Source: a bacterium
Lineage (GTDB): Bacteria > Bdellovibrionota_C > UBA2361 > RFPC01
Length of the DNA stretch: 64,000 nt
Direction of reading: 5' to 3'
NCBI GenBank assembly: GCA_030428205.1
Contig: JAUIBK010000021.1
Location: 2,523 to 66,522, forward strand
Each line of letters begins with the position of its first letter. Positions within the stretch are counted from its first letter, which is position 1. The notes below the pieces were generated by a model, which had not been told where the DNA came from, did not search any database, and saw only the letters and a list, made by a program, of their open reading frames with translations. This document shows positions 25,851 through 28,216 of this stretch, one piece after another. The translations under genes and the position numbers were made by a program.

Positions 25851-25989
25851 TGTATACTACTATACCCATATAATTTTGCTAAGATACCCAACCCTCTTGG
25901 CTCTGTAACTTACTGGTATTTTGACTTCATATGGAAAGTGGGGTAGACCACATCAGCAAGTCTCACACATCTCATGAGCACAGACTGAC

Positions 25990-26073
25990 GCCAGGATGGT
26001 GGAATTGGTAGACACGTCGGATTCAAAATCCGATGCTAGCAATAGCGTGAGGGTTCAAGTCCCTCTCCTGGTA
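25990..26073 (+). tRNA. tRNA-Leu (anticodon CAA)
   Basis: Cloverleaf read by eye: acceptor GCCAGGA/TCCTGGT, anticodon stem-loop CGGAT-TCAAAAT-ATCCG, long variable arm, and T-arm GAGGG-TTCAAGT-CCCTC. No CCA is encoded. Confidence 0.8.
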
Positions 26074-26165
26074 TTTTGATATCTAGAGAATAAGTTAGGG
26101 AGGGACTTGAACCCTCTGCCCCGCAGGGAGAATACTGCTTCAAGACTGATTGCCCCGCAATCAGA

Positions 26166-26202
26166 AAGTCCCTCTCCTGGTATTTTGATATCTAGAGAAT
26201 AA
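26166..26202 (+). repeat. 37-bp direct repeat of 26057..26093, which is the last 17 nt of tRNA-Leu plus 20 nt of 3' flank
   Basis: Identical string AAGTCCCTCTCCTGGTATTTTGATATCTAGAGAATAA occurs twice, 109 bp apart. Confidence 0.85.
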
Positions 26203-26271
26203 TTTAGCTGCTTCTTTCTATAGTAATTGACGGTGTTCCGACAGGCTGCTCATCAAGTGACGAACTATCCT

Positions 26272-27510
26272 TCAACTTACTCCTAAATGCTTTGGCAACT
26301 TTTCAGCAATAAATGTTTCGACTGAAGTTCCATCCCACTTTTCAGGCTCATAAGCGTGGAGCGCATTTTGAATTCGGAGCATCTGCTCAGGAGTTATAAG
26401 ACTGTGTTTCCCACGGGGAGAGCCACCAACGATATCTGTCACCCCCCATCTTTCGTTTTCAGTAATGCGGTCAGGCTCAAGAAGGTTTTCAGCTGCATTT
26501 AAGATTGCTGCTTCATCAGCGAGTGGGATGCTTGGACGATCACCGAGACGTCCAATGACGTACTGATACGTACCATCCTCAAAATCAGAAACAAGTCGAA
26601 CATAGGGCGTGTGTTCTTTTCGTAAAACAAGTCTAGCAAGAGGCCCCATGTTGGCAATAAACGCCCAGCCCTGGGGTGTTTCATTGAGCTCATAGAGCTC
26701 ATCTACTTTATCATATCCCGTTTCTGGCTCTGACCATTCCGCTTCACCATCGAGATAACACTGAAATCGTCGCAAGAAGGCTTCAACAACATTTGAAACA
26801 TCATCAACACCCATCTTTTTACCAAGTGTCTTGGAGTACGGCTCAAAAAGCCATGTTTGCTGGCCGAGAAGTTTCCATCCAGCATCTCCCGCATACTCTC
26901 CAGCGGAAGCATCAAGGTCATTCGTAACTTTTACCAGTTGTGTGATTCGTGGATTGCACGGCTCTGCCATTACCATCTCATAGTGAACAAACTGGGCAAT
27001 GCTCATCAATACATCTTCATCCCAACCATTTACATAGAGGTGAAACTCCGGTTGGCCATTAATCATATGGTGTGATGCCATCCCTTGGCGAAGTGCTTTG
27101 TGTACCTGCATAAGGGTAGCGTCGAGAAATTTACGGGGAAGATCCCCAGCTTCTCTGGGATTATTATGGTGATCAAATGCACGGTGTTTTCCGTTTTCAG
27201 TTTGTTTGGGAAGACCAGGAACGTATCCATCAAGAGCTATGGAATTGGGCGGGGCATTTTCAACAAACTCTTCCCAGTCGCGTTCCCTACCAGGTTCAAT
27301 AATCACATTTACGTAACCGATCTTTAGAACCTTTCGCTCATAGTTGGAATCAATATCATCCGCAAGCTCGCGAAGCTCCTCAACAGAGAGCCTCCTTAAC
27401 GTCGGGGAGGAAAAGTTGAGAGCTCCATCTGAACCTGGTGGAATCGGTGCTGAAGGCTCTTGAGATAAATGGTCTTGGGGGGTCTCCCCATGGTCAGCTG
27501 CAGGATCCAC
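26272..27510 (-). CDS. Hypothetical protein (412 aa, acidic)
   Basis: Long ORF with no recognised motif, located just after the tRNA-Leu repeat. Confidence 0.3.
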   Translation of the reverse strand: MDPAADHGETPQDHLSQEPSAPIPPGSDGALNFSSPTLRRLSVEELRELADDIDSNYERKVLKIGYVNVIIEPGRERDWEEFVENAPPNSIALDGYVPGLPKQTENGKHRAFDHHNNPREAGDLPRKFLDATLMQVHKALRQGMASHHMINGQPEFHLYVNGWDEDVLMSIAQFVHYEMVMAEPCNPRITQLVKVTNDLDASAGEYAGDAGWKLLGQQTWLFEPYSKTLGKKMGVDDVSNVVEAFLRRFQCYLDGEAEWSEPETGYDKVDELYELNETPQGWAFIANMGPLARLVLRKEHTPYVRLVSDFEDGTYQYVIGRLGDRPSIPLADEAAILNAAENLLEPDRITENERWGVTDIVGGSPRGKHSLITPEQMLRIQNALHAYEPEKWDGTSVETFIAEKLPKHLGVS

Positions 27511-27805
27511 TTTGCATTACTTCTAAGAGAGGTCTACGTCAAACAATAAAATGTGACGACTATCATAAGCTGACTCGTATTTCTAATCAAAAGAAGCATT
27601 AGGCTTCCTAACCTCATCATATAAGGACATTTTTTCAGAAATCACCAGAGCACTTAACCTCCTCAGGCAGTTGAAACAGAGACTAAGTAAGAGCTAAACG
27701 GTAACAAGGATAGTCCCCAGACTCCCATAACCTAAGGAAGAAAACCCCCAAGCCACAAGAACCCGGGGACGCTGACACGCTCTTGCAAGCGTACCTACTA
27801 CGGAA

Positions 27806-28216
27806 CTAGCCGAAGATCAGCACACCCACAAAGGCGACTGAGAGGATCACCCCACCGACGAGGATGATCTTCGCGAGGAGAGGAGTCTTGATCGGCTCGA
27901 CCACGGTGGTACCGCGCAGCTGCCCCTCTTCGAGGTAACTCCCGCGAGAGTCGCTCTGCTGCATGTCCGCCTGTGCCGGCTCGCTCTCTCTCGGCTCGAC
28001 GTGACGACGAACCGGCGAAGCGAGCGGCGGCATGTGCTTCTTGCAGTACTGGTACACGCCCTTGGAGGTGTGCACCGGGACGCCGAGCTGCTCGTGGATC
28101 TCCATCGTAGACCCACCGCCGTTGACAATCGCCTGGGCCTGAGCAAGCACTTCGGGAGAGAGCCCGAACTTGCCCTTGGTAGTGGCTTGTGACAATAAAA
28201 CCTCCTCGGTTTTCAC
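27806..28216 (-). CDS. Small tail-anchored membrane protein encoded in a sharply GC-rich (~63 %) segment
   Basis: 136-aa ORF with a C-terminal TM (LLAKIILVGGVILSVAFVGVLIFG). GC is visibly higher than the ~42 % of the flanking 300 bp. Confidence 0.4.
   Translation of the reverse strand: MKTEEVLLSQATTKGKFGLSPEVLAQAQAIVNGGGSTMEIHEQLGVPVHTSKGVYQYCKKHMPPLASPVRRHVEPRESEPAQADMQQSDSRGSYLEEGQLRGTTVVEPIKTPLLAKIILVGGVILSVAFVGVLIFG

Follow-up and report, generated by a model that had tools for sequence, protein, structure and literature searches.

Repeats of transfer RNA (tRNA) fragments and variable regions next to tRNA genes are well known, and it is common practice to let a duplicated tRNA 3' end serve as an automatic marker of a genomic island border. 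In Escherichia coli, the 3' external transcribed spacer (3'ETS) of leuZ acts as a sponge for small RNAs (sRNAs). According to the Islander principle, an island ends at a regenerated tRNA gene on one side and at a displaced 3' fragment on the other (Williams 2002; Hudson et al. 2015, PMC4383910), and 1836 of 3919 Islander islands use sites in the T-stem region (PMC4383910). The formation of cis-mobilizable elements (CIMEs) and their accretion at a retained attachment (att) site are also documented (Pavlovic et al. 2004, as reviewed in PMC5704250). In this paper we analyse a stretch of 64,000 nucleotides (nt) from a bacterium of the Bdellovibrionota_C (GenBank assembly GCA_030428205.1, contig JAUIBK010000021.1, positions 2,523 to 66,522), in which the 3' end of a tRNA-Leu(CAA) gene is repeated downstream, in front of two hypothetical genes. 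We call the whole stretch the window and count positions from its first letter. The border marker is real here but misleading: it brackets 67 bp and predates the divergence of genomes with ~42% protein identity. The bracketed DNA belongs to a module whose level of conservation is close to that of the tRNA, and the genes of truly foreign origin are situated beyond it and arrived separately.

The tRNA-Leu(CAA) gene, whose E. coli counterpart we take to be the leuX hot spot, is the only tRNA that ARAGORN finds in the window. It is identical at 83/84 positions to its counterparts in two metagenome-assembled genomes (MAGs) of Bdellovibrionales, GCA_020434525.1 (the JAGRAQ MAG, contig L006) and HKST-UBA25 (contig L011). 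A previous reading of this DNA, made from the sequence alone, had noticed that a 37-mer made of the tRNA end and its flank recurs 109 bp downstream. The second copy is exact, and with one mismatch allowed (G26094 versus T26203) the repeat extends to 42 nt at 41/42 identity, taking in the spacer after the tRNA (spacer F1) completely (Table 1). Both copies have the orientation of the tRNA, identity begins at AAGT within the T-loop TTCAAGT in the window as well as in HKST-UBA25, and the repeat 23-mer with at most 3 mismatches has 2 sites in 64 kb against a chance expectation of 0.00. These properties support an att origin, and the geometry in particular fits crossover by a tyrosine integrase because the copies share their orientation and start in the T-loop. 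The DNA between the two 42-nt copies measures 67 bp, and both hypothetical genes are situated outside, to the right of copy 2. Neither a short-word BLAST search nor the 23-mer search with at most 3 mismatches found a degenerate third copy in the window; a search for further copies had been suggested as a way to delimit an island.

The 67 bp and the second copy of the tRNA tail together form the conserved module, whose age can be judged from HKST-UBA25, the one related locus among seven obtained when genomes were scanned with the last 22 nt of the tRNA. The gene order there (a 163-aa gene, an acyltransferase, one variable gene and tRNA-Leu) is that of the window; the acyltransferase is 42% identical to that of the window, and the remaining non-coding DNA cannot be aligned. 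Behind the tRNA follow a 25-nt spacer with ~55% identity to F1 and then a block with ~90% identity to 26099-26179 (81 nt), which contains the inverted T-arm described below, both hairpins and the second tRNA-tail copy AAGTCCCTCTCCTG. A terminator-like hairpin (CTTTTGC-TTC-GCAAAAG) stands right after this copy, and the contig ends 50 nt further on. Because the block is 90% identical while the acyltransferase is at 42% and the spacer at ~55%, the duplication is old and constrained. The second tail copy and the supposed debris in front of it are older than the split from HKST-UBA25, and the module, conserved far better than linked neutral sequence, is not a recent footprint. The identical junction between spacer and module, the tRNA size of the module and the terminator-like hairpin in HKST-UBA25 also argue for a constrained unit. 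The first 14 nt of copy 2 are conserved in HKST-UBA25, and the other 28 nt (GTA and a copy of F1) are found in the window genome alone; only this extension of the identity is specific to the window lineage.

The JAGRAQ MAG has an ortholog of the methyltransferase-like gene of the left flank (72% identical) and the tRNA-Leu(CAA) gene in the same position. The tRNA there is succeeded by TTTTTAAAAA, an identical inverted T-arm and the hairpin after it (GAGGGACTTGAACCCTCTGCtCCGCAGGGAG), beyond which the sequence is unrelated. Of the module, this genome retains the first 33 nt; the second tRNA-tail copy and the right two-thirds are missing. The inverted T-arm is invariant across all three genomes. 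An inspection of the tRNA-Leu locus in relatives had been suggested as a way to recognise an empty integration site. A clean empty site is not seen: in HKST-UBA25 the fragment is present with unchanged spacing, and the JAGRAQ MAG has no fragment but does have the first 33 nt of the interval. The presence of the repeat in HKST-UBA25 comes near to what had been named beforehand as speaking for a local duplication instead of an acquisition scar. Downstream of tRNA-Leu, the three genomes all differ. In the JAGRAQ MAG, the downstream gene (L006 1-213) encodes a secreted protein (MNTPCKRKRFLPYLRSC...) without a counterpart in the window.

The module itself has a peculiar anatomy. The antisense T-arm and the 8-bp hairpin that had been noticed between the repeats are both there, and the inverted T-arm GAGGGACTTGAACCCTC can be read, in reverse complement, as the end of the variable arm and the T-arm of many tRNA-Leu genes, including phage-encoded ones. 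Since the left end of the module matches these genes in reverse complement, tRNA debris in inverted orientation appears to be a fair label for it. The predicted fold of the + strand is a junction closed by a 10-bp stem, P1 (26099-26108 with 26166-26175), in which the 5' half of the inverted T-arm takes part, together with hairpin B. The folding energy is -32.1 kcal/mol, with z = -3.3 on the + strand and z = -1.8 on the - strand.

These features raise the question whether the module functions as a structured RNA that shares its transcript with tRNA-Leu, either as a 3' trailer or as a small RNA derived from tRNA fragments, and is unrelated to integration. We regard this as somewhat unlikely. The tail copy would then be the 3' strand of the closing stem, the repeat would exist to stay complementary to the inverted T-arm, and the 25-nt extension in the window genome would be a local gene conversion. 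If this were true, the 3'-end duplication would be part of a closing helix and no integration scar at all. We consider it equally doubtful that 26099-26182 is an undescribed tRNA-linked structured RNA gene of a Bdellovibrionales lineage, which was built from tRNA-Leu fragments (the inverted T-arm and the 3' tail), is co-transcribed with tRNA-Leu(CAA) and is under purifying selection. Several observations suit this idea besides the conservation and the stronger folding of the + strand. The module is of tRNA size and follows a 25-nt spacer, in HKST-UBA25 a terminator-like hairpin comes after it, its left third is invariant in 3/3 genomes, and the 8 differences between the window and HKST-UBA25 all fall outside both stems P1 and B. 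Among the 22 consensus pairs, which rest on 2-3 sequences only, one shows a G-U to A-U change at the base of P1 and none has changed on both sides. Because no pair has changed on both sides, the structure is compatible with the data and unproven, and only two full copies of the module are known. It also counts against an RNA gene that the JAGRAQ MAG is without the right two-thirds of the module, that no Rfam family (Rfam 15) reaches E = 1 on the + strand, with non-tRNA matches of at most 18 bits and far below their thresholds, and that in the window no terminator follows the module. A terminator scan of both strands gives no intrinsic terminator in 26074-26210. When the inverted T-arm of the JAGRAQ MAG is read on the - strand, TTTTT follows it, which is suggestive only as a terminator. 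We also tried the module as a tRNA, a transfer-messenger RNA (tmRNA) or a member of another Rfam family on either strand and found no ARAGORN call and no Rfam match near threshold; the best match to the tRNA clan in 26085-26215 is tRNA-Sec on the - strand (12.5 bits, E 4.9).

The size of the module also brings to mind an ancient tandem duplication of the tRNA-Leu unit. The module is exactly as long as the tRNA (84 nt) and begins exactly 109 bp after its first base, which is the sum of tRNA and spacer (84 + 25), and the arrangement is present in HKST-UBA25 as well. In this explanation, the second copy would have decayed except for its 3' end, and gene conversion in the window genome would later have homogenised the last 42 nt. 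We consider it improbable. Module and tRNA are not significantly similar over their first 67 nt: when we tested whether the module could be a copy of the tRNA body that has diverged, the local alignment scored below the mean of 2000 shuffles (p = 0.87), so that despite the matching period a decayed copy finds no support in the sequence. Neither ARAGORN nor the Rfam tRNA model finds a tRNA there, the inverted T-arm at the start of the module is no product of tandem copying, and neutral decay is at odds with 90% conservation.

We tentatively prefer a third explanation, namely an old att-type module made of tRNA fragments that was retained or co-opted, later changed in one lineage by a 28-nt conversion or accretion, and lies beside a variable region with two independent acquisitions. 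We see three layers. In the oldest, the tRNA-Leu(CAA) gene and its 25-nt spacer are followed by the module built from tRNA fragments (the inverted T-arm, two hairpins and the last 14-17 nt). We infer that a tyrosine integrase crossed over in the T-loop, which would have regenerated the tRNA 3' end and displaced a 3' fragment. The integrated element would have collapsed to ~67 bp, a minimal CIME-like remnant. This would have happened before the split from HKST-UBA25, and the remnant would have stayed nearly unchanged since. As it has been kept nearly unchanged, the module should have some present role; our guess is that it serves as a structured 3' trailer or terminator, or as a second landing site for integrating elements. 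In the second layer, confined to the window genome, a 28-nt tract (GTA and the 25-nt spacer) would have been copied from the 3' flank of the tRNA onto the end of copy 2, stretching the identity from 14-17 nt to 42 nt. The shared core could have seeded a gene conversion or a template switch, or a related element could have integrated at the distal copy (accretion). The third layer is the DNA from the module to yfcH, a variable region that acquired independently a gene of a phage-associated family and a 727-bp cassette of high-GC origin, with neither an active element nor an integrase remaining. The CIME and accretion model (PMC5704250) offers a precedent for a remnant that has two att copies and no genes and later takes up new DNA at the distal copy, and it could explain why the phage-family gene abuts copy 2 and why the 25-nt flanks are identical.

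Some observations do not sit easily with this preferred explanation. A neutral scar should have decayed over such an evolutionary distance, and a module at 90% next to a spacer at ~55% demands function as an extra assumption. The occurrence of the same spacer-module junction in two deeply diverged genomes would suit a natural unit better than a deletion scar, and simple integration yields no inverted tRNA fragment. The module is known from only three genomes, and two of their contigs end 50-520 bp from it. Also, neither an integrase, a matching attP nor a third att copy was found in the window, three viral scans and two metagenome scans.

Our scans of viral, genome and metagenome sequences found no matching attP or related full-length element. 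In IMG/VR, the repeat 23-mer has no match, the 17-mer core has one match inside unrelated sequence, and a module-specific 19-mer has 6 matches with dissimilar flanks. The viral scan with the inverted T-arm followed by TGC matches only the reverse complement of phage tRNA-Leu genes. In the metagenomes, the 25-mer tRNA tail is found in 4 contigs of other lineages, with the module in 0/4, and the combined pattern of tRNA tail and inverted T-arm gave no match; nor did the genome scan with the flanking methyltransferase. If an integrase-bearing element bounded by AAGTCCCTCTCCTGGTA were found in this clade, it would favour the att origin.

For the two genes beyond copy 2, the sequence-only reading had proposed a foreign origin, and there are signs of horizontal transfer in each, although they are of a different kind. 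The 412-aa gene has a host-like composition (46.9% GC, and 0.38 at third codon positions, GC3) and is not compositionally foreign. As had been said, the protein has no recognisable domain, with no match in Pfam, NCBIfam, PHROG or PADLOC. We found 16 homologs among 5.8 billion proteins. The family alignment has four invariant motifs (IALDGYV, NHH, NDCDEDV and VGGSPR), and its invariant acidic and His-His motifs come after beta-strands. The three homologs viewed in context (~30% identity) are all on phage-like contigs with packed co-directional small open reading frames (ORFs), and their neighbours include a large serine recombinase, an Rv2179c-like exonuclease, Endonuclease_7, peptide deformylase, a metallophosphatase and TnpB. 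These gene arrays cover L002/L003 2525-4955, L020 3293-9200 and L021 5049-11723. One homolog is directly upstream of a 483-aa large serine recombinase, and the contigs of others also carry TnpB, a Band_7 protein, peptide deformylase and Endonuclease_7. From these contexts, the family may have a phage accessory or anti-defence function.

A copy of the 412-aa gene with 91% amino acid identity exists in the JAGRAQ MAG at a different locus, beside an extracytoplasmic function (ECF) sigma factor and with no tRNA nearby, and nucleotide homology (85.6%) is limited to the gene. Between these two genomes, the proportion of synonymous differences (pS) is 0.54 for the 412-aa gene, the synonymous divergence (dS) 0.94 and the ratio of nonsynonymous to synonymous divergence (dN/dS) 0.05, compared to 0.69, 1.9 and 0.11 for the methyltransferase. 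Because its synonymous divergence is clearly below that of a core gene in the same genome pair, the 412-aa gene appears to move horizontally within the clade. An AlphaFold2 model of the protein has a predicted local distance difference test (pLDDT) score of 80. The best Foldseek matches are weak and are DHH phosphodiesterases (GdpP, DhhP, NrnA and pAp phosphatase; E 0.013-0.04, template modelling (TM) score 0.15-0.24), and a phage DHH phosphohydrolase is among the matches in a viral structure library. Pfam DHH (PF01368) and DHHA1 match in none of the 17/17 family members searched. The protein is possibly a metal-dependent phosphoesterase, which we offer as a lead and no finding. Its first 58 residues belong to a ~60-residue N-terminal extension with pLDDT < 50 that is missing in the ~310-aa homologs; either translation may truly start at a later codon, or this lineage may have an extension of its own.

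The second gene stands out by composition. The GC-rich ORF has 61.6% GC, with 0.65, 0.41 and 0.79 at the first, second and third codon positions, while GC3 is 0.37-0.51 in 38 other ORFs; the excess is concentrated at third codon positions. The composition had been called foreign to surroundings of ~50% GC, which is true of the gene, but the background of the window is 47.3%. The AT-rich spacer between the two ORFs is also as described, at 35-47% GC. The protein has no match in Pfam (E up to 10), NCBIfam, PHROGs, PADLOC, a phage tblastn search or a plasmid blastn search, nor in a word-indexed protein search. When 1.84 billion representatives were searched exhaustively with HMMER, one homolog came up, P0076 (63% identity, E 1e-32), on a 1.2-kb contig from another sample (L030), where it adjoins yfcH too and has a GC3 of 0.73. 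The ORF is a real gene because the GC3 bias exists in both genomes, all indels between the pair are whole codons, dN/dS is 0.47, and start and ribosome-binding site are shared. The likelier start is probably TTG at 28195 after the ribosome-binding site GAGGAGG, giving 129 aa; both are common to the window and L030, and the gene caller picked the same start for P0076.

The gene is part of a 727-bp cassette with a promoter-like site, leader and terminator of its own (Table 1). The upstream segment (TTGACA-18-TATGGT and the ~110-nt leader) is 84% identical to L030 and the downstream segment with the terminator-like hairpin 80%, while the next 100 nt beyond the cassette toward yfcH are 41% identical. 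dS against L030 is 0.59 for the cassette gene and 2.06 for the adjoining yfcH. Clear homology stops near 27650, ~140 bp from the start codon of the 412-aa gene and inside an element resembling a repetitive extragenic palindrome (REP); the L030 contig itself ends ~60 bp past this point. Given these sharp borders, the linkage to yfcH in L030 and the stop of homology before the 412-aa gene, the GC-rich gene is a self-contained cassette of high-GC origin, tied to yfcH and independent of the tRNA repeat as well as of the 412-aa gene. Its composition would either be still drifting toward that of the host, or the cassette would have been exchanged between lineages after their split.

Two further observations concern the cassette. 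The 84% identity of promoter and leader (28196-28382, - strand) is above the conservation of synonymous sites in the gene, and the leader (28196-28307) contains a hairpin, GTAAGG-loop-CCTTAC, in which the stem is kept and the loop differs; it has no Rfam match. It may be a regulatory leader. The REP-like hairpin element is dispersed and has the form CCAACCGCCTAAGGCGG...CTCTCTGCTTGCCGCTTTTCC-GTAA-GGAAAAGC...GCAGAGAG. The first fliD gene is followed by a full copy (19793-19891), 87% identical to the end of L030 (1125-1224), and a truncated, diverged copy is found downstream of the GC-rich gene, where the clear L030 homology ends.

The idea that the tRNA repeat and both genes are the result of a single recent integrase-mediated insertion, with the 412-aa and 136-aa genes as one mini-island, has to be weighed against these histories, and we judge it very improbable and already largely refuted. 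The tRNA 3' end is indeed duplicated from the T-loop on and both genes carry foreign signatures, the phage-like contexts and low pS of one and the GC3 of the other. But both genes are outside the repeat-bracketed interval and no distal repeat exists in the window. The second tail copy predates the split from HKST-UBA25, which leaves nothing recent about it, and the interval holds 67 bp only; of the proposed integration scar the geometry stands, but the module is old, constrained and present in a distant relative. The two genes also differ in GC3 (0.38 versus 0.79) and in history. The GC-rich ORF is not absent from the same site in relatives, as it adjoins yfcH in L030, with homology ending before the 412-aa gene, which itself is found at another locus in the JAGRAQ MAG. 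Finally, domain scans of the window ORFs of at least 150 aa found no integrase, recombinase or transposase domain, in agreement with the earlier statement that no integrase is present. The observation that started this work is confirmed and its interpretation is partly supported; the island drawn around it was mostly wrong.

An assembly artefact, either a spurious loop through the repeat or a chimeric GC-rich insert, is hardly credible. The source is a metagenome-assembled genome, and a separately assembled contig from run SRR24442554 in the Logan collection (L029) breaks inside copy 2. However, this contig is 100% identical to the window over 26173-30669, the module with the second tail copy occurs independently in HKST-UBA25, and the GC-rich gene has the same flanks in another sample at 76% identity.

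Table 1. Features of the tRNA-Leu(CAA) locus and its surroundings in the window.
Feature	Position	Strand	Description
SAM (S-adenosylmethionine)-methyltransferase-like gene	24825-25850	-	left flank; linkage to tRNA conserved in L006
12-mer CTGGTATTTTGA	25913-25924	+	upstream of tRNA
tRNA-Leu(CAA)	25990-26073	+	84 nt, CCA not encoded; ARAGORN; Rfam RF00005, 59.1 bits
Direct repeat copy 1	26057-26098	+	last 17 nt of tRNA and all of 25-nt spacer F1; repeat search
Conserved 84-nt module	26099-26182	+	S (67 nt between repeats) and core2 (second tRNA-tail copy)
Inverted T-arm copy GAGGGACTTGAACCCTC	26100-26116	+	17/17 complementary to tRNA T-arm
Hairpin B, 8-bp stem CTGATTGC/GCAATCAG	26146-26164	+	loop CCC in window, TCT in L011
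Direct repeat copy 2	26166-26207	+	41/42 versus copy 1
412-aa ORF	26272-27510	-	rare family, mostly on phage-like contigs
Self-contained 727-bp cassette	27656-28382	-	promoter-like site, ~110-nt leader, ORF, terminator; 75.7% nucleotide identity to L030 431-1164
Overlap with REP-like hairpin element	27656-27719	-	partial and truncated; full copy at 19793-19891
Terminator-like hairpin, then TTTCTTCCTT	27744-27770	-	after GC-rich ORF; conserved in L030
GC-rich ORF	27806-28216	-	136 aa from GTG 28216; C-terminal transmembrane helix
Promoter-like site TTGACA-18-TATGGT	28314-28343	-	conserved in L030
yfcH/TIGR01777-family oxidoreductase	28483-29400	+	right flank; linkage to GC-rich cassette conserved in L030

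The related 12-mer that had been noticed upstream of the tRNA is present, starting at 25913 and not at 25914. We rejected it as a third att remnant. Only its TTTTGAC part, which overlaps a -35-like TTGACT, is kept in the JAGRAQ MAG (TTGACA there); the CTGGTA part is not conserved and was treated as coincidence. CTGGTATTTTGA is probably a promoter element plus a chance 6-mer, and an exact 12-mer so near the tRNA is still somewhat surprising if CTGGTA is coincidental. The methyltransferase-like protein on the left flank has a weak PRMT5-type match (E 3e-5), and its nearest relatives outside the clade are 25-43% identical; HKST-UBA25 has an unrelated 199-aa gene in its position. Further away in the window, there is a lone coupling protein of the TraG/VirD4 type for type IV secretion (12237-14621, + strand; T4SS-DNA_transf, TrwB_AAD_bind and TraG-D_C), and the large ORFs of the window yielded no further genes for conjugation or integration. 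The region 15347-21627 contains a flagellin gene, an unrelated Beta-CASP/metallo-beta-lactamase gene on the opposite strand (16585-17964) and two paralogs of fliD (hook-associated protein 2; 18326-19780 and 20218-21627). A 20-nt exact repeat (19785-19804 and 20073-20092) lies in the spacer between the fliD genes.

If the module is functional, it would show that integration debris can be co-opted, either as RNA or as a permanent second landing site. The analysis also had two side products. One is a very rare family on phage-like contigs, with the 16 homologs mentioned above and with acidic and His-His motifs that suggest a phosphoesterase. The other is a gene family of two members, in which GC3 is held at 0.73-0.79 in genomes of ~47% GC.

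Several known systems can be compared with what we find at this locus. The 412-aa protein resembles the DHH/DHHA1 phosphoesterases (GdpP, NrnA, DhhP and pAp phosphatase) in that these give its best Foldseek matches and that it has acidic and His-His motifs. In contrast to them, it matches only weakly (E ~0.01, TM 0.15-0.24) and has no Pfam match, and its motifs come in a different order, so that membership is not established. The module is comparable to the 3'ETS of leuZ as a conserved structured sequence directly downstream of a tRNA-Leu gene, with which it is probably co-transcribed. There is no sequence relationship between the two, however, and the module holds copies of tRNA fragments.

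The CIMEs share with our locus two att-like copies that were kept while the integration and transfer genes are gone, and here too foreign DNA abuts the distal copy, which is what a later element targeting that copy would leave. The retention of both copies with loss of the genes between them is trivial given a size of 109 bp. Described CIMEs are instead kilobase-sized decayed integrative and conjugative elements (ICEs) or integrative and mobilizable elements (IMEs) of Firmicutes; this locus has no known helper element, and a distal att site of a second element does not survive. The likeness to Islander islands is in the intact tRNA, the cognate 3'-end copy in the same orientation and the start in the T-loop, which places the crossover in the T-stem-region class of att sites. 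Unlike in these islands, the interval is 67 bp and not kilobases, it has neither an integrase nor the size of an island with cargo, the candidates for cargo lie outside, and the relatives provide no empty site. The fragment and interval are moreover 90% conserved in a deeply diverged genome. A 67-bp 'island' with about the conservation of the tRNA, between genomes with ~42% protein identity, is an unusual variant.

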